From: Xylanibacter ruminicola 23
Lineage (GTDB): Bacteria > Bacteroidota > Bacteroidia > Bacteroidales > Bacteroidaceae
Direction of reading: 5' to 3'
Assembly: GCF_000025925.1 (NCBI RefSeq)
Contig: NC_014033.1
Coordinates: forward strand, 3,000,001 to 3,032,000
Length of the DNA stretch: 32,000 bases
Each line of letters starts with the position of its first letter. Within the stretch, counting starts at the first letter, position 1. The position numbers were made by a program, and so were the translations under genes. A model generated the notes under the pieces. It searched no databases. It saw only the letters and a program-made list of their open reading frames with translations, and had not been told where the DNA came from. Shown here piece by piece: positions 5,962 to 31,999 of the stretch.

Positions 5962-6050
5962 GCCAATTATCAAGGGGTGCCTACGAGTGTAGGCTGAGAT
6001 GATACCCTCTAACCTGATCTGGATTATGCCAGCGTAGGGATGGATAGCAG
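5962..6050 (+). promoter_or_regulatory. TPP (THI-box) riboswitch
   Basis: Contains the conserved THI-element core GGGGTGCC...GGCTGAGA...ACCC...AACCTGATCTGGATTATGCCAGCGTAGGGA. A short P1 can form between TATC (5968..5971) and GATA (6043..6046). The element sits directly upstream of a TonB-dependent receptor and a PnuC-family gene. Confidence 0.85.
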
Positions 6051-6097
6051 ACAATAAACACCCCCTTAACATTATTAATTATTGATACTATTGTAGT

Positions 6098-8449
6098 ATG
6101 AAAAGATTTGTTTTAGGAATGGCTGCATTAGTGTGTGCAGCAGGCGCAAACGCACAGCGTAAAGCAGCCCTCTACGATTCTACACAAGTAGAAGCGCTGA
6201 ACGAAATTGTAGTAAAAGGTGTCAGGACACAGAAAAATGCACCATTTGCAGTAGCAAACATCAAGAAAAAGGAGCTTAACGCTTTCTCGAACACAGGAAA
6301 AGAATTGCCTTTCCTCTTTTCGCAGACCCCAGGTGTACTGGCTTGGAGCGAAAACGGACTGGGCACAGGTACTACTTATATGCGCATTCGTGGTGCAGGC
6401 GATTCGCGCATCAACGTAACACTGGATGGCGTACCCCTGAATTCGCCTGAAGATCAGTGTGTTTTCTGGGCCAACATGAACTCTTACGGTTCGCTGTTAG
6501 GTAGTGTACAGATTCAGCGCGGTGTAGGCACATCAACCAACGGTGATGGCGCCTTTGGCGGAACTGTAGCACTCGCTTCAGCCATTCCAAATCAGAAGGC
6601 TGGGGGAGAAGTGTCAGTATCATACGGCTCATTCAACACATTCAATGTAGGTGGAAAGTTCTCAACAGGTTTACTGTGGAATCATCTGATTTTTGATGGT
6701 GCCTATCACGAGACCAATACTGATGGATTTATCCATGGAACCAGCGGACGCAGCGGTTCTTACTATGGCGGACTCACCTGGATTGGCAACAAGTTCCAGA
6801 TTCGTTATAAGAACATCGGAAACTTTGAAAAAACCGGTCAGGCTTGGAACGGCGTAACAGCAGGCGACAACGATATGAGTCTGATGGACGGAACTTACGG
6901 TATCAACACTGGCATCAAGACCTACAAGGATATGTGGAACGCCGGTCTGGGCAAGTACAACTCGCTGTACGAATACCTGACTGGTTACGAAAAAGATGCC
7001 AACGGCAACTATCCCACAGCGCGCTATCAGCTGAACGACGGCAGCTATTGGAACAAAACCACCGATAACTTCTGGCAGAACCACAACATCCTCTCAGCCG
7101 CCTACGATATCAACGACAACTGGAGCATTTCAGGTTCGCTGCACTACACTTACGGCTACGGCTATTATAACGAGTTCCGTCCTCAGAACAAGCTGAAGAA
7201 GTTTGGCATGACCTACAGCGGCGTTAAAAAGACCGACTTCGTGCGCCAGAAAGGACTGAGCCAGAACACTTACGGTTTTATCTGGAATGCAAACTACAAG
7301 AACGATGCATGGGATGTTATCGGCGGCATGTCGCTTCAGGAGTTCGACGGCAATCACTTTGGTTATGTTACCTATATTGCCAACGATGATGTACGAAAGA
7401 AATACATGTCTAATGGCGACTACAAATACTACGATTCTGATGCCACCAAGTTTGATGGTAGCGCCTTTGTAAAGGCTGCTTATCACATCAACGAACAGTG
7501 GGATATCTTCGGCGACCTGCAGTATCGCTACGTACAGTACGAAAGTAACGGTATTAACGATAAGTTCTACGAAGAGGGCAGCAGCTATTACAACCAGCGC
7601 CTCGATATCGATCAGAAGTATCGTTTCCTGAATCCCAAGGCCGGTTTCTCTTGGAATCTGAACAATCACCGCATTTACGGATCGGTAGCACTTAGCCACC
7701 GCGAACCAGAACGTAATAACTTTACAGATAATGGTGCAAAGCCATTCCCTAAGGCCGAAAGCCTGTTAGATTACGAGTTGGGTTACACCTTTAACAACGA
7801 CATCTTCCGCTTTGGTGTAAACCTTTATTACATGGACTACACCAACCAGTTTGTACAGACTGGCGAGAAGAGTGATATTGGCGAGGATCTTACCACAAAC
7901 ATCAAAGACTCATACCGTATGGGCGTAGAAATCCAGGGTGGGGTAGATGTTACCTCTTGGCTCAGCATTGAGGGTAATGCTTCACTCAGCCAGAATAAAA
8001 TCAAAGACTTCGACGAGGTGGCCAGCGTAAACTGGGAAGAGTCGTTCCGCACTATCCACTACGACAACTCTACACTTGCTTTCTCACCCTCAACCATCCT
8101 GAACGGTTTTGTAAACCTGCATTGGAATGGTTTGCAGGCTGTATGGCACACCAATTTTGTAAGCCGTCAGTACCTGGATAATACAGAGAACGCTGATCGT
8201 TCGCTGCCTTGCTACTCAGCTTCTGATGCCAACATCAGCTACACCTGGAAACCCAATAAAGCCATCAAGGAGTGCATCTTCGGTCTGAATTTCAACAACA
8301 TCTTCAATCGTCGCTATGCCGCCAATGGCTGGGTATATTCAAGCATCGTTGAAGAATACGGTCATCCCAACGAGAACCGCTACTATCAGATTGGATTCAT
8401 TCCTATGGCAGGCTTTACAATGATGGGTAATGTAACACTCCGATTCTAA
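6098..8449 (+). CDS. TonB-dependent outer-membrane receptor, TPP-riboswitch controlled (probable thiamine uptake)
   Basis: Signal peptide MKRFVLGMAALVCAAGANAQ. Plug-domain motifs (IVVKG, IRGAGDSRINVTLDGVPLN), a long beta-barrel region and a terminal aromatic residue (TLRF). The substrate is inferred from the riboswitch context. Confidence 0.85.
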   Translation: MKRFVLGMAALVCAAGANAQRKAALYDSTQVEALNEIVVKGVRTQKNAPFAVANIKKKELNAFSNTGKELPFLFSQTPGVLAWSENGLGTGTTYMRIRGAGDSRINVTLDGVPLNSPEDQCVFWANMNSYGSLLGSVQIQRGVGTSTNGDGAFGGTVALASAIPNQKAGGEVSVSYGSFNTFNVGGKFSTGLLWNHLIFDGAYHETNTDGFIHGTSGRSGSYYGGLTWIGNKFQIRYKNIGNFEKTGQAWNGVTAGDNDMSLMDGTYGINTGIKTYKDMWNAGLGKYNSLYEYLTGYEKDANGNYPTARYQLNDGSYWNKTTDNFWQNHNILSAAYDINDNWSISGSLHYTYGYGYYNEFRPQNKLKKFGMTYSGVKKTDFVRQKGLSQNTYGFIWNANYKNDAWDVIGGMSLQEFDGNHFGYVTYIANDDVRKKYMSNGDYKYYDSDATKFDGSAFVKAAYHINEQWDIFGDLQYRYVQYESNGINDKFYEEGSSYYNQRLDIDQKYRFLNPKAGFSWNLNNHRIYGSVALSHREPERNNFTDNGAKPFPKAESLLDYELGYTFNNDIFRFGVNLYYMDYTNQFVQTGEKSDIGEDLTTNIKDSYRMGVEIQGGVDVTSWLSIEGNASLSQNKIKDFDEVASVNWEESFRTIHYDNSTLAFSPSTILNGFVNLHWNGLQAVWHTNFVSRQYLDNTENADRSLPCYSASDANISYTWKPNKAIKECIFGLNFNNIFNRRYAANGWVYSSIVEEYGHPNENRYYQIGFIPMAGFTMMGNVTLRF

Positions 8450-9033
8450 TGGCAGATTTTATTTCAGCACACTGGCTCGACATCACTACCACGTTACTCG
8501 GACTGCTCTATATCCTGTTCGAGTATCGCGCCAGCGTATGGCTTTGGTTTGTAGGATTTCTGATGCAGGCCTTAGGCATTGTGCTATACTATCAAAAAGG
8601 ACTCTATGCCGATTGCGGCATGGAGTTCTATTATCTTTCGATGACCGTTTACGGCTATTGGAAATGGGTACACGGTTCGGCCGAGAAGAAAGAGCTGCCT
8701 ATCACGCGATTCCCACGCCGACTGATAATCCCTTGGTTGGCTGTTATTCTGGCCATCTGGGGCATTATTTATTGGCTGCTGATTACCTTTACCAACAGTA
8801 ACGTTCCAGCAGCCGACAGTTTTACTACAGCCCTCAGCATTGTTGGTATCTGGGCCTTGGCTCATAAATACCTGGAACAATGGTTCATCTGGATTGCTGT
8901 CGACGTTGTAACCTGTGTTCTTTACTTCTATAAGGACATTCCTTTCAAAGCCGGTCTTTATGCACTTTATGTAGTTATTGCCATTTTTGGCTACAAAAAA
9001 TGGAAACGAATGACAGATAATCGCCCTATTTGA
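8449..9033 (+). CDS. pnuT: PnuC-family transporter, PnuT-type (thiamine) by context
   Basis: 194-aa polytopic membrane protein with the W-rich PnuC-like pattern (YGYWKW ... FGYKKWKR). Its start overlaps the receptor stop (TAATG). It is in a TPP-riboswitch operon, the arrangement described for Bacteroidota thiamine uptake. Confidence 0.75.
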   Translation: MADFISAHWLDITTTLLGLLYILFEYRASVWLWFVGFLMQALGIVLYYQKGLYADCGMEFYYLSMTVYGYWKWVHGSAEKKELPITRFPRRLIIPWLAVILAIWGIIYWLLITFTNSNVPAADSFTTALSIVGIWALAHKYLEQWFIWIAVDVVTCVLYFYKDIPFKAGLYALYVVIAIFGYKKWKRMTDNRPI

Positions 9034-25480: not shown

Positions 25481-25542
25481 CTCCTTTTTTCGCAAACAGC
25501 AAAATTTTAGCCTTAAATAATTGTTATGTTCCCGTTTATTTG

Positions 25543-25550
25543 TATCTTTG
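25543..25550 (+). promoter_or_regulatory. -7 promoter box TATCTTTG for the LD-carboxypeptidase gene
   Basis: TAnnTTTG match only 8 nt upstream of the ATG at 25559. Confidence 0.4.
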
Positions 25551-25558
25551 CCAGCAAG

Positions 25559-26518
25559 ATGAAGAAACTCGTTATCATATCGCTGATGCTTTGCTGGATG
25601 CTGTCGCTTTCAGCCCAATTCCTAAATTCGGGCGACACCATCGCTATAATCTCGCCTTCAAGTGCAACCGATACTGCTACCATTAATGGCGGCATCCAAA
25701 CCTTAGAGAAGTGGGGCTATCCATGCATCGTGGCGCCCCATGCACTGGCCGATTATCATGGTTTTGCAGGCACTATCGATGAGCGACTTAGCGATTTGCT
25801 GTGGGCTTTACGCACACCATCCATCAAGGCCATCATGTGTTCGCGAGGCGGCGATGGAGCTGCCCATCTGCTTTCCCGTATCTCATTAGATACACTCCAG
25901 CAGTATCCAAAGATGATTATCGGATTCAGCGATGTGACGGCGTTGCTGTGTGCCCAGGCTAGGGCAGGCGTAATGGGTATTCATGGTTCGATGTGTCATG
26001 CATTGAAAACCTACGAGGGCAACGATACCGTGAGTCAGGCTTTACGAGGCATGCTTGCTGGTCATCTGCCCACCTATCGCATTGCTCCCCATCCCTTAAA
26101 CATAACAGGTAAGGCCGAGGGCATTATCGTTGGTGGTAACATGAGCGTTTTCAACAATCTGGCAGGCTCTGATTTCGATCCGCTGTTTATCGATGGAATC
26201 GTACTATTTATTGAAGATACAGGCGAGGGCATGAGTAAGGTAGACCGCATGCTGCATAACATCGAGATACGTGGCTTACAGAAACACATCCGAGCCGTTA
26301 TTGTTGGGCAGTTCAACAAATACAAACACCCCGAAAACGGTTTCGACGACATGTACGCCCTGCTCAACGAGTACCTACAGCATTGGCACATCCCCGTATG
26401 CTACAACTTTCCTGTAGGTCATGCCCACCTAAAAAACTTCCCCCTCCTAACAGGCGCCAAAGCCACATTAGAAGTAAACCCCGATGAGGTAGTGCTAGAT
26501 TACAATAATTCCCATTAG
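25559..26518 (+). CDS. LD-carboxypeptidase (peptidase S66, LdcA/MccF-like) with a predicted signal peptide
   Basis: S66 triad context: nucleophile GFSDVTAL, acidic FIEDTGE, and His in PVGHA. I chose the start at MKKLVIISLMLCWMLSLSAQ because the longer ORF from 25526 would contain the promoter box. Confidence 0.8.
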   Translation: MKKLVIISLMLCWMLSLSAQFLNSGDTIAIISPSSATDTATINGGIQTLEKWGYPCIVAPHALADYHGFAGTIDERLSDLLWALRTPSIKAIMCSRGGDGAAHLLSRISLDTLQQYPKMIIGFSDVTALLCAQARAGVMGIHGSMCHALKTYEGNDTVSQALRGMLAGHLPTYRIAPHPLNITGKAEGIIVGGNMSVFNNLAGSDFDPLFIDGIVLFIEDTGEGMSKVDRMLHNIEIRGLQKHIRAVIVGQFNKYKHPENGFDDMYALLNEYLQHWHIPVCYNFPVGHAHLKNFPLLTGAKATLEVNPDEVVLDYNNSH

Positions 26519-26596
26519 AGGAACATTTTGTTCCCACGTTGGGAATGAAACGTTCCCAAACTGGGAATCAAACATTCCCAAGTTGGGAATATTTTA
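26509..26596. repeat. Four tandem 22-bp units, each carrying a TTCCCA-N3-TGGGAA(T) palindrome. Three units are perfect and the first, overlapping the stop codon, is degenerate.
   Basis: Units start at 26509, 26531, 26553 and 26575. They read TTCCCATTAGAGGAACATTTTG / TTCCCACGTTGGGAATGAAACG / TTCCCAAACTGGGAATCAAACA / TTCCCAAGTTGGGAATATTTTA. Confidence 0.85.
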
Positions 26597-26670
26597 CGTG
26601 CTTTAGATGGCAAGGGGGAGTATAAATCAAAAAAACTGAGTAAAACTATTTATTTTGAGAATAATTATTG

Positions 26671-26678
26671 TATCTTTG
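26671..26678 (+). promoter_or_regulatory. -7 promoter box TATCTTTG driving the cobalamin riboswitch leader
   Basis: TAnnTTTG match a few nt upstream of the riboswitch P1. Confidence 0.45.
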
Positions 26679-26684
26679 CAGCTG

Positions 26685-26880
26685 TAATCGGTTCTCCTGA
26701 TGTGGAGATTAATAGGGAATCGGGTGAGAATCCTGAACAGAATCCCGCCGAAAGGCACCTACCCGTGGCCTTTCCTGCTGCTGTAAGTCGTCCTTTATGA
26801 GGCGCAAACATGTATGTCACTGAGATTTTTGGGAAGACGTTTGCTGCCAGACGATAAGTCAGAAGACCTGCCGATGAAAC
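26685..26880 (+). promoter_or_regulatory. Cobalamin (B12-element) riboswitch
   Basis: Conserved blocks AATAGGGAATCGGGTGAGAATCC, GCTGCTGTAAG, GTCACTG...GGGAAGAC and the B12 box AAGTCAGAAGACCTGCC (26856..26872). P1 forms between ATCGG (26687..26691) and CCGAT (26871..26875). It lies upstream of a TonB-dependent receptor. Confidence 0.85.
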
Positions 26881-26930
26881 TTTAGCCGCTTGCCTATCTC
26901 TGGGGTTAGATGGCGATGGCAGAATAAAAG

Positions 26931-28946
26931 ATGATGAATCGAGCATTCACATTGGCAATGGCTTGCGTGTTGACGATGACAACGGCAGCACAAAGCAAGT
27001 TAGATTCCGTACAGCATGTGCGGGAGATAATTGTTGTGTCGAAGCCTGCCATGCGCGAGGTGGTACCCAGTCAGAAACTGAAGGGCGAACTGCTGGAACA
27101 ACTGAACACGCACTCTGTGGCCGATGCGTTGCGCTATTTCTCAGGTGTCCAACTAAAGGATTATGGCGGCGTGGGCGGCATTAAAACAGTAAACATCCGC
27201 TCGATGGGTACGCATCACTTAGGCATCAGCTACGATGGTGTGCAGTTAGGTAATGCGCAGAACGGACAGATTGACTTGGGCCAGTTCTCACTTGATAACG
27301 TAGAGGATATCACACTTTATAACGGCCAGAAGAGTGCCATCTTCCAGCCCGCCAGCGATTTTGGAAACGCCGGTTCTATCTATATCCGTACCAAAGCGCC
27401 TGATTTCAAGAAAGGCGAGAATACCCATCTGCGATTTAAAACCCAGTATGGTTCAAGCGATATGTTCCGCTTTTCTACCCTTTGGGAGCAGAAACTGTCA
27501 TCAACCATCAGCTCATCGGTAAGTGCCGGCTTCTTAACAGCCAGCGGTAAGTATAAGTTCCATTACGAGCGAAAATATCCTAACGGACAAACGGCTTGGG
27601 ACACAACGGCTGTGCGACAGAACGGCGATATACATGCTGAACGTATCGAAGCAAACCTGTTTGGCCGATTGGAGCAGGGTAGTTGGCAGCTTAAGGGTTA
27701 TCTATATAACTCAGCCCGAGGCATTCCTGGTGCCATCGTAAACAACGTATGGCGACGTGGTGAGCGCCAACAGGATTTGAACACCTTTGTACAAGTCGAT
27801 TATAATAAGAATATAGGCGATGGTTTCAGCACCCGATGGCTGGCCAAGTATGCCTATTACAACACCCACTACGTAAACAAGGATACCACCCAGCTACCTG
27901 TTGACAATCGTTACAAGCAGCAGGAGTTCTATCTTTCTACAGCCAATGTACTGGAGCTGCTACCCAACTGGAGTGCATCGCTGGCCTACGATTTTAAGTG
28001 GAACAAACTGAATGCTGATATCTACAACTTTGCATACCCCACACGCATCTCTAATCTGGTAAGCTTAGCCACAGCTATCGACTACAAACATCTGAAGGCG
28101 CAGGGCTCTATCCTGGCTACCTTTATCCACGACAAAACCCACCGCAGGGGTGAGTTTGCAGGCTTAAACAGCAGTCATTCGCTATCTAAACTCACGCCGG
28201 CGCTATTTGTTAACGTGTATCCCTTCCGAGGCACCTTCTTCTCTATGCGAGCCTACGTAAAAAAGAGTTTCCGCATGCCGACCTTCAACGACCTGTATTA
28301 TACCGATATGGGTAATGCCAACCTGGTGCCCGAGAGCGCCTTGCAGTACGATGCCGGCTTTGCGCTTAACAAGCACTTTGAGCATAGTATCATTCGCCAT
28401 GCCGAGATGCACTTCGATGCCTATTATAATACAGTACACGATAAAATTGTGGCTTACCCCAAGGGGCAGCAGTTCCGTTGGACGATGCTGAACTTAGGTA
28501 AAGTTCACATCAAGGGAATAGATGTTGAGGCCGAGGCCGATTTCAAGATTGGTAAGGATCTGATAGCTACCACTCGTGCCCAGTACACTTATCAGGATGC
28601 ACGCGATGTTACTGATGCCGAAACCTCGTATTATAAGCATCAGATACCCTACATCCCCTGGCACTCAGGTTCTGCTATTCTGGGTCTTACCTATAAGAAC
28701 TGGAACCTGAACTACTCGTTTATCTATGCGGGCGAACGCTACGACGAGCAGGAGAACATTATCTATAACCACATGGAACCTTGGTACACCAGCGACCTGA
28801 GTCTGGGAGTTTGGTGGAAAGTAAATAGTGTGCTGATGAAAGCGCACTTGGATGTGAACAATCTCTTAGGTCAGGATTACGAGGTAATCGTAAATTACCC
28901 CATGCCTGGTCGCAACTATGCACTAACATTAAGCGTTGAGATATGA
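26931..28946 (+). CDS. btuB: TonB-dependent receptor, BtuB-like (cobamide uptake by riboswitch context)
   Basis: Signal peptide MMNRAFTLAMACVLTMTTAAQS. Plug motifs (IRSMGTHHLGISYDGVQLGN), a 22-strand-type barrel length (671 aa) and a C-terminal TLSVEI. The substrate is inferred from the B12 riboswitch. Confidence 0.8.
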   Translation: MMNRAFTLAMACVLTMTTAAQSKLDSVQHVREIIVVSKPAMREVVPSQKLKGELLEQLNTHSVADALRYFSGVQLKDYGGVGGIKTVNIRSMGTHHLGISYDGVQLGNAQNGQIDLGQFSLDNVEDITLYNGQKSAIFQPASDFGNAGSIYIRTKAPDFKKGENTHLRFKTQYGSSDMFRFSTLWEQKLSSTISSSVSAGFLTASGKYKFHYERKYPNGQTAWDTTAVRQNGDIHAERIEANLFGRLEQGSWQLKGYLYNSARGIPGAIVNNVWRRGERQQDLNTFVQVDYNKNIGDGFSTRWLAKYAYYNTHYVNKDTTQLPVDNRYKQQEFYLSTANVLELLPNWSASLAYDFKWNKLNADIYNFAYPTRISNLVSLATAIDYKHLKAQGSILATFIHDKTHRRGEFAGLNSSHSLSKLTPALFVNVYPFRGTFFSMRAYVKKSFRMPTFNDLYYTDMGNANLVPESALQYDAGFALNKHFEHSIIRHAEMHFDAYYNTVHDKIVAYPKGQQFRWTMLNLGKVHIKGIDVEAEADFKIGKDLIATTRAQYTYQDARDVTDAETSYYKHQIPYIPWHSGSAILGLTYKNWNLNYSFIYAGERYDEQENIIYNHMEPWYTSDLSLGVWWKVNSVLMKAHLDVNNLLGQDYEVIVNYPMPGRNYALTLSVEI

Positions 28947-30109
28947 AGCAGCTAGCGTACTACATATTAACCCTGTTGCTCCTTTCGGCCTGTCGCCAGG
29001 ATGTGATGATAGTGCCGATGGAGAAAAGCGATCCAGGCGGTAAAACGCAGCAGGGCGATATCATAGGTATGTATCTGCTGAATGAGGGCAACATGGGATC
29101 GAACAAGTCGTCGCTCGACTATCTCGACCTGTCGGATTCTACAGCCCACTATTATCGCAACATCTACTCGCAGCGCAACCCAAGTACTGTAATGTCGCTG
29201 GGCGATGTGGGTAACGACTGTCAGATATATGGCTCGCGTCTGTGGCTGGTTATCAACTGCTCAAACAAGGTTGAAGTGGCCCGTGCCGATTCGGCTATCA
29301 GAATAGGAAAGGTAAACATTCCTAACTGCCGATACGTGACGTTTAACGATCGCTATGCCTACGTGTCATCGTATGTGGGAACGGTTTATGCTTCGAGCAA
29401 CAGTCCGTTGGGTAGCGTGTATAAGGTAGATACACTCACCTTGCAAAAGGTTGACTCTTGTAGTGTAGGCTATCAGCCTGAGGAGATGGCCATTATCGGC
29501 AACCAGCTATATGTAGCCAACAGTGGTGGCTATCAAGGTATGACGGGACAGGGTTATGAGAGTACGGTAAGTGTGATAGATATGGCTACCATGCAAGAAA
29601 CCAGCAAGGTAGAGGTTGCCCCCAACCTGCACCACCTGAAGGCCGATAAGTACAATCAGCTGTGGGTAACGGCTCGTGGCGACTATATGACTGAGGCACC
29701 AAGCATCTGGTGGCTGGCACCCGACGAAAACGGCCAGATGAAAGTAGGTGGACACATCGATCAGGCAGTAAGCGATCTGTGTATTGTGGGCGATTCGCTC
29801 TATTTCTACGGTTCTCAATGGAGCGAGGTGTCGATGAGTAATACCATCACCTATGGTATCATCAACGTAAAAACGCATCAGGTGGTAAGCACCAGTCTGT
29901 CGAGTGCACCCGAGATTAGCAAGATACGCATGCCTTATGGCATCATTGTAAACCCCATCCATCGCGATTTTTATCTGATGGATGCCAAGAACTATGTATC
30001 GAGTGGCGAGTTGCTGCACTTCCTGCCCGATGGCACCTTCGACTGGAAGGTAAGCACAGGCGATATACCCGCCCACGCAGCATTTTTATTTAAAACAACA
30101 AAAAAATGA
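28943..30109 (+). CDS. Surface lipoprotein, YncE/DUF5074-like beta-propeller. BtuG-like by position directly downstream of btuB.
   Basis: Lipoprotein signal LLLLSAC. The motif GMYLLNEGNMGSNKSSLDYLD and repeated strand patterns are typical of YncE-like propellers. ATGA overlap with btuB. The BtuG assignment is contextual (established Bacteroides btuB-btuG arrangement), not shown by alignment. Confidence 0.6.
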   Translation: MKQLAYYILTLLLLSACRQDVMIVPMEKSDPGGKTQQGDIIGMYLLNEGNMGSNKSSLDYLDLSDSTAHYYRNIYSQRNPSTVMSLGDVGNDCQIYGSRLWLVINCSNKVEVARADSAIRIGKVNIPNCRYVTFNDRYAYVSSYVGTVYASSNSPLGSVYKVDTLTLQKVDSCSVGYQPEEMAIIGNQLYVANSGGYQGMTGQGYESTVSVIDMATMQETSKVEVAPNLHHLKADKYNQLWVTARGDYMTEAPSIWWLAPDENGQMKVGGHIDQAVSDLCIVGDSLYFYGSQWSEVSMSNTITYGIINVKTHQVVSTSLSSAPEISKIRMPYGIIVNPIHRDFYLMDAKNYVSSGELLHFLPDGTFDWKVSTGDIPAHAAFLFKTTKK

Positions 30110-31224
30110 AGAAGATATTTTTACTATTAATAGCCGCAATTACCATCGGTAATATCCATGCTCAGCGCATGGACGATGTTACTGTGCACTCCAAATACAT
30201 CCAGGCGGTAGATGAATATCGCCCTGCCCCAGGACAGTATGTAAACGATGTGCCAGAATACGAAGCTGGCGATACCGAGGCCGATATGATTCGTAAGTGT
30301 AACAACAACCTGGCAGGTCTTGGTCCTATCAATTCCCATTTGGTGGCACTTGGCGGCTGGGGCGGTTATATCACGTTCCACTTCGATCATTCTATCGCCA
30401 ACGTGCCTGGCGAGCGCGACTTTGCCGTATGGGGAAACGCCTATCAGGAAATGAAGAATCTGGTGTTTGGTGGTATGAATGAGGCTGGCGTAGTAATGGT
30501 GTCGAAGGATGTAAACGGCAACGGAAAGCCCGACGACCCTTGGTACGAAATCAGCGGCAGTTGCGATGTGGATAGCGCAGGCAAGGTAATTTATGGTTAC
30601 GAGATAACCTACCGTCAGAACCCCATGGGTGATATTCCCTGGACAGATAACCAAGGTAATAGCGGCACCATCGATCGTAATCACTACCATACCCAGGAGT
30701 ATTACCCCCAGTGGTTGCCAGATAATCTCACCTTCAAAGGCACCCGACTGCCCGATAATATGCAGAATCTGTCCGATCAGGTAGAGCAGTCGTTCAGTCC
30801 CTACTATTACGTGCTGGTAGGTTTCCGCTATGGCTATGCCGATAATCTGCCCAACTTTAGCGATAATGCCGATGCCACCTCGTATAATTATGAGGGCTGC
30901 GGTATTGATATCTCGTGGGCTGTGGATGAGAACCGTCAGCCTGTAAATCTTGATTTCATCGACTTTGTACGTGTATATACAGGTTTGAATCAGAAATGTC
31001 CCCAACCCGAGTGGTGGGGCGAAACCTCTACAGAGTTTGCTGGTGCCGAGGATATCCATCTCGAAGCCTCGCTCCAAGCTATCGAGAATGCTTTGAGCGG
31101 CATTCGTGCTATCCAGCAGGAAGCATCTTCATCAAGTCCTTTCTACGACCTGCAGGGTCGAAAGGTTACTCCAACCAAGAAGGGTGTCTATATTCAAAAC
31201 AGAAAGAAGATAGTTATCAATTAA
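30106..31224 (+). CDS. Secreted protein of unknown function in the B12 locus, with a short C-terminal motif resembling a T9SS sorting tail
   Basis: Signal peptide MKKIFLLLIAAITIGNIHAQ. ATGA overlap with the upstream gene. The C-terminus is SPFYDLQGRKVTPTKKGVYIQNRKKIVIN. I recognise no catalytic motif. Confidence 0.7.
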   Translation: MKKIFLLLIAAITIGNIHAQRMDDVTVHSKYIQAVDEYRPAPGQYVNDVPEYEAGDTEADMIRKCNNNLAGLGPINSHLVALGGWGGYITFHFDHSIANVPGERDFAVWGNAYQEMKNLVFGGMNEAGVVMVSKDVNGNGKPDDPWYEISGSCDVDSAGKVIYGYEITYRQNPMGDIPWTDNQGNSGTIDRNHYHTQEYYPQWLPDNLTFKGTRLPDNMQNLSDQVEQSFSPYYYVLVGFRYGYADNLPNFSDNADATSYNYEGCGIDISWAVDENRQPVNLDFIDFVRVYTGLNQKCPQPEWWGETSTEFAGAEDIHLEASLQAIENALSGIRAIQQEASSSSPFYDLQGRKVTPTKKGVYIQNRKKIVIN

Positions 31225-31255
31225 TTCATATTAATCACTTAAAACAAAAACAGTT

Positions 31256-31999
31256 ATGAAAACAAACAAATTATTCGGACTTGCAGTCCTCGCGTGCGGT
31301 TTCGCACTGTCGTTCACATCATGTACTAATGATGACAATCCAGTTGGTGGTAAGAGACAGGCTACAGTTTCTTTCGAGAACAAGAAGCTTGGTGCTGATG
31401 GCTATTGGCGTGGTGACGAATCTGGTACTAAGTTTGATAATTACGGATTAGAGGCCTTCGCCTGCCAGTATAAGGAAAAGGGGGTAACCTTCCCAGTAAA
31501 CTACACACCTTCTTGGGCCAGCTGGACTGGTTTTGCTATCTCAAATCGCACAGAGACTACTTATAAGGAGCAGAATCCCGATCAGTTCAATAGTGCTGTA
31601 GGTGCTGCCAAGAGCGGTAACAACTTCTGTGTAGTATATACCTATGGCGAGGAAATCGATTTCGGTCGTGCCGTTACCCTGAAGGGCTTCTGGTTCACCA
31701 ACGAGGCATGGGCTGTTGATGCCATCCTGAATGGCGATGGAATGTCTCCTGGTAAGTTTGAGAAGGACGACTGGTTTAAGTGCACAGTTACTGCAACACT
31801 GTCTGATGGTTCAACCAAGGATGTTGAGGTTTTCCTGGCTAAGGATGGTGAGTATGTAAAGGATTGGCAGTTCTGCGATTTCCAGAGTTTGGAAAAAGTT
31901 ACCAAACTGAGCTTTGCATTCGATAGCACTAAGAAGAACGACTACGGTCCAACAACTCCTACTTACATGTGTATCGACGATATCGAGTTTGAGTATTAA
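31256..31999 (+). CDS. DUF4465-like lipoprotein, an accessory protein of the B12 uptake locus
   Basis: Lipoprotein signal LSFTSC. SWASWTGFAISNRTE, FWFTNEAWAV, DDWFKCTVTA, and the C-terminal TPTYMCIDDIEF resemble my recollection of the DUF4465 family pattern. The stop TAA is at 31997..31999. Confidence 0.7.
   Translation: MKTNKLFGLAVLACGFALSFTSCTNDDNPVGGKRQATVSFENKKLGADGYWRGDESGTKFDNYGLEAFACQYKEKGVTFPVNYTPSWASWTGFAISNRTETTYKEQNPDQFNSAVGAAKSGNNFCVVYTYGEEIDFGRAVTLKGFWFTNEAWAVDAILNGDGMSPGKFEKDDWFKCTVTATLSDGSTKDVEVFLAKDGEYVKDWQFCDFQSLEKVTKLSFAFDSTKKNDYGPTTPTYMCIDDIEFEY

Follow-up and report, generated by a model that had tools for sequence, protein, structure and literature searches.

A 22-bp-phased array of TTCCCA-N3-TGGGAA palindromes at the ldcA/btuB junction of Xylanibacter ruminicola 23 is one copy of a dispersed, lineage-specific repeat family

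We analysed a 32,000-nucleotide stretch of the Xylanibacter ruminicola 23 chromosome (contig NC_014033.1, positions 3,000,001 to 3,032,000; hereafter the window, in whose coordinates positions are given), and in particular an array of TTCCCA-N3-TGGGAA palindromes that separates the LD-carboxypeptidase gene ldcA from the cobalamin riboswitch of a TonB-receptor (BtuB-like) operon. An earlier note on this DNA had described the array as the layout expected for cooperative binding of a dimeric regulator, with control of the btuB promoter implied. We are highly confident that the array at 26509-26590 represents one solo member of a family of palindromic repeats that is dispersed and lineage-specific, and that it is not a B12/btuB operator. 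No description of a TTCCCA-N3-TGGGAA repeat family was found in the literature searched, and the family is apparently undescribed. Overall we favour, with moderate confidence, a sequence-specifically recognised module resembling repetitive extragenic palindromic (REP) sequences and bacterial interspersed mosaic elements (BIMEs), present here as a passenger insertion in the X. ruminicola lineage.

The whole element (26505-26594; no strand is assigned to it or its units) consists of four 22-bp units with A/T-rich half-linkers of ∼ 5 nt. Unit 1 (26509-26523, TTCCCATTAGAGGAA) is degenerate, with two mismatches to the pattern, and lies in phase with the others. Units 2 (26531-26545, TTCCCACGTTGGGAA), 3 (26553-26567, TTCCCAAACTGGGAA) and 4 (26575-26589, TTCCCAAGTTGGGAA) are perfect palindromes with the centres CGT, AAC and AGT, and unit 4 is followed by TATTTTAC. 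Tandem Repeats Finder recovered 26530-26590 with a period of 22, 2.8 copies and zero indels. A pattern search allowing up to two mismatches gave seven matches in the 32-kb window against 1.03 expected, a number reached by 0 of 100 shuffles; the only perfect sites in the window are those at 26531, 26553 and 26575. The earlier description of four units in exact 22-bp phase, with invariant arms and variable centres and without a perfect copy elsewhere in the 32 kb, is borne out by the sequence and by both searches, as is the overlap of degenerate unit 1 with the ldcA stop codon (TAG, 26516-26518). The array has no Rfam match at the gathering threshold (in permissive mode only chance-level hits, E ≥ 0.48), and BLAST of 26500-26650 against plasmid and phage records gave zero matches.

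When a single genome from each species was scanned for two perfect palindromes 0-30 bp apart, at least 120 matches were returned. Some 100 of the matches listed are from rumen Prevotella/Prevotellaceae genomes, together with the cultured X. ruminicola Ga6B6 and Prevotella sp. ne3005, and single genomes contribute at least 5-8 array loci to them. In the Prevotella loci among these matches, spacing is exactly 22 bp in 212 of 237 cases. Three units per array are the rule (71 of 101), followed by four (13), two (13), five (3) and six (1), and units standing alone are very rare (2 in 766 kb). The consensus unit is a 19-bp palindrome, Y-R-TTCCCA-NNN-TGGGAA-Y-R, which with a 3-nt A/T linker makes exactly 22 bp, so that the usual three-unit module measures 66 bp. 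Unit centres vary, with ACG/CGT and GCG/CGC favoured, and the arrays occur in both orientations. Their flanks are unrelated between loci: information drops to background beyond ∼ 5 nt on each side, and this short conserved flank resembles half an internal linker. A one-sided tail motif, TAAATnnnGAGCCTTrG, accompanies only ∼ 12 arrays. A short-word BLAST for a larger conserved element beyond the array found nothing significant; unit 1 and the right tail of the window copy resemble loci L028 and L140 by eye only. Pattern matches in Rhizobium, Sphingobium, Acinetobacter and others, with spacings of 24-45 bp inside a conserved gene, were treated as unrelated.

The scan of viral contigs gave only five matches, representing two phage loci, too few for the array to be generally phage-borne. 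These comprise an intergenic three-unit array in a (pro)phage contig from the rumen, found four times over in IMG/VR, and a two-unit array in a second viral contig (L133:5633-5691, L135:3900-3958, L134:3256-3292). A census of array-encoded peptides through a protein-database word index yielded 28 candidates, mostly tiny spurious ORFs (open reading frames). Database entries P0391-P0413, hypothetical proteins of 30-80 residues called across intergenic TTCCCA arrays, are annotation artefacts made of FPxWE, IPxxG and SQxGN repeats.

By long-ORF heuristics, the intergenic arrays lie between convergent (17), co-directional (27) and divergent (14) genes. Among non-ORF arrays 37 of 85 lie no more than 120 bp past the end of a gene, with 11 of these 37 sitting tightly between convergent genes, and ∼ 14 touch or nearly touch a stop codon, as the window copy does. 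A further 18 of 103 (∼ 18%) are inside ORFs longer than 600 nt. A pattern search of the kind proposed by the earlier note, here run over a genome from each species, returns a dispersed multi-copy element found in all intergenic classes and inside ORFs, with no promoter association, which is the outcome that the note itself had set against its operator reading. Hosts of in-frame copies include a GH106 alpha-L-rhamnosidase, an AT3 acyltransferase, an ABC-F ATPase and a CobQ-like amidotransferase; other copies occupy the N-terminal regions of long ORFs, one of which, when checked, has BspA-type leucine-rich repeats. The in-ORF copies are genuine in-frame segments, with coding sequence conserved on both sides in several species. 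Because 3 × 22 = 66 bp, the three-unit module keeps the reading frame, and its successive units are translated in different frames, as FPxWE, IPxxG and S(Q/H)xG(N/K). The earlier argument that a 22-bp period, not being a multiple of three, excludes a coding repeat is true of the window copy, but the usual 66-bp module is translated in frame elsewhere, and even here unit 1 encodes the end of LdcA.

The pattern of conservation within the units indicates what is being retained. Arm positions 7 and 8 are R and Y independently in each arm (A..C 65 times, G..T 71 times), mismatches in degenerate units are uncompensated, and no covariation supporting hairpin pairing was found in the family units. The conserved feature is the half-site YR-TTCCCA rather than base pairing. 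In-frame copies extend this to the nucleotide level. Approximately 95 of 120 AT3 ortholog clusters (70-98% identity) carry the array peptide R-IPxxG..SxxGN..FPxWE-Y in a loop, and the corresponding loop is shorter and unrelated in array-less orthologs and distant homologs. Two AT3 orthologs picked blind to their DNA retain 36/36 and 35/36 arm bases, synonymous positions included, while four-fold sites across these genes differ by 46-61%.

The same holds at the window locus, for which three alleles were compared (the window, L140 with 96% LdcA identity, and L141). Arms are invariant, in unit 2 as elsewhere (0/36 sites variable), whereas variation is seen in the centres (2/9; the centre of unit 3 is GGC in strain L140), in the linkers (1/14) and to the right of the array (13/37 aligned columns). 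The difference between the arms and the loops, linkers and tail taken together (16/60) is significant (Fisher p = 3.6e-4). The hypervariable stretch on the right (26590-26625, no strand) is also far more variable than the ldcA 3′ end (6/69) or 26626-26700 (7/78, some of these at the alignment end), which holds the promoter and first riboswitch bases; it appears unconstrained, in contrast to the invariant arms. Arm conservation of this kind would be expected from a dimeric protein that binds a specific sequence, or from an enzyme that recognises hairpins sequence-specifically. The dimeric-regulator part of the earlier proposal is thus plausible, given the conserved half-site and the 22-bp spacing; cooperative control of a btuB/B12 promoter is unsupported, since the arrays are dispersed and show no promoter association.

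How the array altered ldcA can be read from its 3′ end. The gene (25526-26518, + strand) encodes a 330-residue Peptidase_S66 protein ending ...DYNNSH*, whereas LdcA orthologs at 78-90% identity, which lack the array, end four residues earlier at ...VVLHY*. The additional NNSH codons and the TAG are supplied by unit 1, in which a mutated arm creates the stop; as read from the sequence, a consensus T at 26518 would extend the ORF to a TGA in the first linker. A sequence-identical LdcA protein is present in Xylanibacter (Prevotella) ruminicola assemblies, and a metagenome scan anchored in the btuB promoter found one further allele, likewise array-bearing. Comparison with relatives, as the earlier note had suggested, went against its reading: in four related species the array is absent after the ldcA stop. 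The genes downstream of ldcA differ there too, so that the array sits at a synteny break, for which these relatives offer no clean empty site. To judge from these comparisons, the array at ldcA is a lineage-specific acquisition of the X. ruminicola lineage. Its only demonstrable effects here are the remodelled LdcA C-terminus and stop codon; it may also form a barrier or terminator that separates ldcA from the riboswitch promoter. One species without the TTCCCA array, its LdcA being 82% identical, has 4.9 copies of an 11-bp iteron-like repeat (CACTTTACCGC) ∼ 90 bp past the ldcA stop (L126:3547-3608, L127:3547-3608), and the ldcA 3′ flank may be a recurrent landing site for such modules.

ORF clustering identified one recurrent neighbour of the arrays, a VapE-like protein (PF05272, with or without a primase-like BT4734 N-terminal domain) that is usually paired with DUF6078; the remaining neighbours are genes of an ordinary or unrelated kind. 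In a tblastn search, vapE and/or DUF6078 turned up at 17 loci. The arrays lie 170-450 bp upstream of vapE, amid 10-12-bp repeats specific to each cassette (AAGACCTAACAT, TAGTAGAGGAT, ATCTCTCCC, TGACATA, AACATACAC), and it is these, rather than the TTCCCA units, that look like iterons proper. They often form inverted sets flanking the array, followed by a Bacteroidetes-type promoter. Overall, 38 of 102 arrays (37%) are within 350 bp of 10-12-bp iteron sets, 12 being placed between inverted sets, and many array-iteron modules are orphans beside unrelated genes (Fic, HTH_3, DUF6377, RsgA). One cassette was found as two 95%-identical copies whose chromosomal surroundings differ. The two are homologous from the array's outer edge onward, with the order of centres in common, and the homology stops after a terminator 88 bp beyond the DUF6078 gene end; the array therefore travels with the cassette. 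From their architecture, and by analogy with the origins of phage-inducible islands and the single-strand initiation (ssi) sites of IncQ plasmids, these regions may function as replication origins.

The cassettes comprise two genes, for a VapE-like helicase (with or without the BT4734 domain) and a Cys-rich DUF6078 protein, and upstream of vapE each carries direct and inverted sets of 10-12-bp iterons from a family of its own. Examples at L086:3607-5960, L092:3102-6145 and L034:445-3076 lie among ordinary chromosomal genes with no integrase nearby. Judged by gene content and repeats, they appear to be origin-bearing islands or satellites, seemingly undescribed. Many TTCCCA arrays in iteron-rich regions are adjoined by another phased hairpin repeat, CCCTTATT-N4-AATAAGGG, which has a period of 21 bp and is present in 2-3 copies (for example L034:518-576, L014:6325-6386, L033:2834-2896, L122:604-662 and L049:189-244). 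The same genomes also hold 22-bp-period repeats with different cores (TCCTTAA..TAGG, AAATTCAGTGAATTT, GCTACTATTAATAGTAGC, CCTAAAAGCATAGG; L012:4777-4861, L008:3587-3649, L031:4309-4355, L104:1154-1216, L121:5963-6037), one of which, in L012, continues in phase straight out of a TTCCCA array. The repeats with other cores may be sister families of the TTCCCA arrays.

In the mechanism we propose, each 19-bp palindrome would be recognised by a dimer of one sequence-specific DNA-binding protein, or by a hairpin-recognising enzyme, and three dimers in 22-bp register would line up roughly along one DNA face. The same cis-module would stand at the centre of the iteron-flanked, origin-like regions of the VapE (primase-helicase)/DUF6078 cassettes, and many chromosomal sites would have acquired or kept copies of it in the fashion of REPs and BIMEs. 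We regard reading by one dimeric protein, together with use in VapE islands and copying round the chromosome, as somewhat probable. In the X. ruminicola lineage the module would have entered the extreme 3′ end of ldcA, which gained four codons and a new stop, and it would now be a passenger between ldcA and the B12-riboswitch promoter, perhaps acting as an incidental hairpin barrier between transcription units. The window holds neither iterons nor a vapE gene; the array is therefore a solo copy here, to which an origin-related role does not apply.

Several observations weigh against this reading, the missing vapE and iterons among them. No binding protein, transposase or REP-associated tyrosine transposase (RAYT) was identified at the array loci, no clean empty (pre-insertion) site for the ldcA/btuB junction was found in relatives, and tests at eight boundary offsets gave no excess of 2-8 nt direct repeats, as target-site duplications, over shuffled flank pairs. 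The unbiased test of constraint comprises two orthologous DNA sequences and three window-locus alleles, and the arms could be kept intact by gene conversion or repeated re-insertion instead of selection for protein binding. Copy numbers, which come from the matches listed, are lower bounds, and the sample favours arrays with two perfect units; most sampled genomes are metagenome-assembled, and gene contexts derive from the long-ORF heuristics. Finally, 22 bp corresponds to ∼ 2.1 helical turns, and the earlier statement that all sites share the same DNA face is consequently only approximate.

The closest known systems are REPs and BIMEs, which are likewise short palindromes in many dispersed, often clustered copies with a lineage-specific consensus. 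Dedicated proteins (RAYT, gyrase, IHF) are believed to recognise REPs. The TTCCCA unit, at 19 bp and in at least 100 arrays, agrees with the description of a REP as a short (20-40 bp) dispersed palindrome, but the GTAG/CGTC tag at the end of the REP stem-loop (PMC3733652) is not present in it. REP and BIME hosts are Enterobacteria, Pseudomonas and Stenotrophomonas, whereas the TTCCCA arrays belong to Bacteroidota. BIMEs alternate the orientation of their palindromes and have variable linkers; TTCCCA units have perfect 6-8-bp arms and a 3-nt centre, and are joined head-to-tail at exactly 22 bp. REPs reside mostly in non-coding DNA near gene 3′ ends or between convergent genes, with occasional intragenic copies (PMC3733652). 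The frequency of TTCCCA arrays close to gene ends (37/85) recalls this bias, yet 14 are divergent and 18/103 lie in ORFs; about one-sixth of the copies are translated in frame, and many are in iteron-rich, origin-like regions.

Two further families invite comparison. Rickettsia palindromic elements insert in frame into unrelated housekeeping genes and add a conserved peptide without destroying the protein (PMC10969869). In-frame insertion with a conserved peptide is also seen for the TTCCCA arrays, which is shared behaviour and not evidence of homology. The Rickettsia elements are single units of ∼ 100-150 bp, lack an internal 22-bp periodicity and take their peptide from one frame, whereas a TTCCCA module is read as three successive units in three frames. 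BrickBuilt of Porphyromonas gingivalis, a minisatellite and MITE (a miniature transposable element with inverted repeats), consists of intergenic tandem 22-23-nt units in variable copy number at 19 dispersed loci, some bare and some with flanking modules (PMC4596501). It resembles our arrays in its Bacteroidales host and in having no Rfam match. Its 23-nt unit AGAYCATARTATCCTCTCRTRTG is, however, not palindromic and by eye is closer to the Prevotella iterons than to the TTCCCA unit; it has a leader and tail with terminal inverted repeats like those of insertion sequences (IS) and is strictly intergenic, whereas the flanks of TTCCCA arrays are not conserved and some copies lie within ORFs. We rejected BrickBuilt membership on unit sequence, symmetry and the lack of conserved flanks. 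A MITE shares its terminal inverted repeats with a resident IS; none with ends of this kind turned up in the loci, for which no IS-database comparison was made, and the outermost palindromes of any array trivially form inverted ends. A CRISPR array was also rejected, because it would have repeats of 23-50 bp and unique spacers of similar length, and here a 15-19-bp palindrome alternates with 3-7-nt linkers.

These comparisons bear on the possibility that the family is purely selfish, a REP/MITE-type miniature mobile element with no host or replicon function, whose arms reflect transposase recognition and recent spread, re-insertion or gene conversion. It is consistent with a dispersed, multi-copy element that is present or absent between related species, has no conserved flanks and reaches a few phage contigs. 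In-frame coding insertions are known from the Rickettsia elements (PMC10969869), and both intragenic copies and concerted evolution are known for REPs (PMC3733652). Nevertheless, we consider this explanation unlikely. Among the ORFs of ∼ 100 loci no transposase, RAYT or integrase was found next to the arrays, and the failure to find target-site duplications counts against it as well. Orthologous arms are perfect although synonymous sites are near saturation and loops and linkers have diverged, which conversion would be expected to homogenize too. Moreover, the consistent central place of arrays between inverted iteron sets suggests use over random landing.

The opposite extension, to which we also assign a low probability, is that TTCCCA triplets form a genome-wide system of cis-elements that is under selection even within coding genes and is common to the chromosome and to VapE islands, in their origin-like regions. 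Such triplets would serve specifically for protein loading or hairpin priming, as chromosomal equivalents of plasmid ssi and pas sites or of centromere-like sites, read by a Prevotella protein, and the sister families may have co-evolved partners.

Alternatively, the array may be a module of the VapE-island origin-like regions, serving there, for example, in hairpin priming or loading as IncQ ssi sites do, or in cruciform unwinding, with the solo copies as inert leftovers or by-products. A 22-bp period is classical for iterons, and origin iterons are 17-22-bp direct repeats beside an initiator gene. In IncQ RSF1010, which combines iterons with hairpin ssi sites, and in phage-inducible islands, a central element just upstream of a helicase/primase gene is bordered by short iterons in direct and inverted repeat. 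A palindrome is able to fold into a hairpin on either strand, and the TTCCCA palindrome would form the same one on each. The arrays are found between inverted sets of iterons a short way upstream of the vapE promoter, move together with the cassette, and are the same in cassettes of differing iterons. This last feature departs from classical origin elements, as does the occurrence of the array alone at many chromosomal sites. Inert relics should decay, whereas solo copies within ORFs show nucleotide-level constraint; iterons are missing from the vicinity of 64 of the 102 arrays, the short form of VapE lacks the primase-like BT4734 N-terminal domain, and origin function is itself deduced from architecture. 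We therefore judge this alternative decidedly unlikely.

Selection on RNA hairpins, as a 3′-untranslated-region (3′-UTR) terminator or an mRNA-stabilising structure of the kind known from E. coli REPs, which would end or protect the ldcA transcript here, is improbable. The 37 of 85 non-ORF arrays shortly past a gene end and the 11 in tight convergent positions would suit such a role, and the stretch from ldcA to the riboswitch shows no further hairpin resembling a terminator. As RNA the array region folds well (−44.3 kcal/mol, z = −4.8). Its minimum-energy structure is a nested, register-shifted form, which the earlier note had listed as the alternative to its three consecutive hairpins. Single palindromes give weak hairpins of approximately −7.5 to −8 kcal/mol as RNA (unit 4, −7.5) and −4.5 to −5.3 as DNA. 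A lenient consensus scan of the window flagged unit 4, which is followed by UAUUUUAC, as a weak terminator-like site, the sole unit to pass. The T content after the hairpins does not depend on transcription orientation (2.69 sense versus 2.63 antisense, p = 0.87), and these statistics lend no support to the 3′-UTR hairpin idea of the earlier note. An intrinsic terminator was rejected, since it would have a stable GC-rich hairpin and a U-tract, and these hairpins are weak and without T-linker orientation bias. That sequence is kept rather than pairing, with no compensatory changes, and that copies lie inside long ORFs and upstream of genes, also argues against an RNA-level element.

A locus-specific operator for cooperative control of the btuB/B12-riboswitch promoter or of ldcA by a dimeric regulator would fit the phasing of the palindromes, their position (centres at 26538, 26560 and 26582, ∼ 90-135 bp upstream of the riboswitch match) and the conservation of their arms among X. 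ruminicola strains, but we dismiss it as very improbable, because the same array recurs at ∼ 100 unrelated loci among the matches listed, within ORFs or beside genes that have nothing in common, no B12 riboswitch or btuB adjoins any of the other arrays examined as far as their neighbours are annotated, relatives lack the array at ldcA, and conservation together with the promoter is expected of any constrained element.

The neighbouring features are conventional. The cobalamin riboswitch (RF00174, 85.9 bits; 26672-26889, + strand) lies outside the repeat element, and comparison with the published consensus suggests a putative Bacteroidetes-type −7 box, TATCTTTG, at 26671-26678. The BtuB-like TonB-dependent receptor gene follows (26931-28946, + strand); an imperfect 16-bp tandem repeat within its ORF (GGACAAACGGCTGTG, 2.7 copies; 27585-27626) is also present in L001 and L002. 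The operon continues over 28943-31999 with a DUF5074 protein, a 372-residue protein without a Pfam match and a DUF4465 protein, all three of which are probably surface-exposed accessory proteins of B12 capture. The remaining window is ordinary chromosome (PolA, RF2, TatC, YchF, Lgt, MutS and a thiamine-uptake operon), and no mobile-element genes, tRNA or tmRNA were found in the 32 kb. The thiamine-uptake operon (5963-9033) parallels the layout of the B12 operon from 26672: a thiamine pyrophosphate (TPP) riboswitch (RF00059, 67.9 bits) is followed by a TonB-dependent receptor (6098-8449) and an NMN_transporter/PnuT-type transporter (8449-9033).

Rumen Prevotella rank with the most abundant bacteria of their habitat, and annotation of their genomes has been left almost wholly to machines. 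In them the TTCCCA family is currently invisible, or miscalled as hypothetical proteins of 30-80 residues, while unnoticed it inserts loops of 22 residues into enzymes and reshapes the ends of genes such as that for LdcA. It brings together three traits that are usually separate: REP-like dispersal, in-frame insertion of the kind seen for Rickettsia palindromic elements, and a fixed central place in iteron-flanked, origin-like regions. Phased palindromes beside riboswitches or promoters in this clade should accordingly not be taken for local operators. The conservation of half-sites where synonymous sites are near saturation makes the family a tractable case for asking whether such a repeat is a parasite or a working part, and for finding the protein that reads it.

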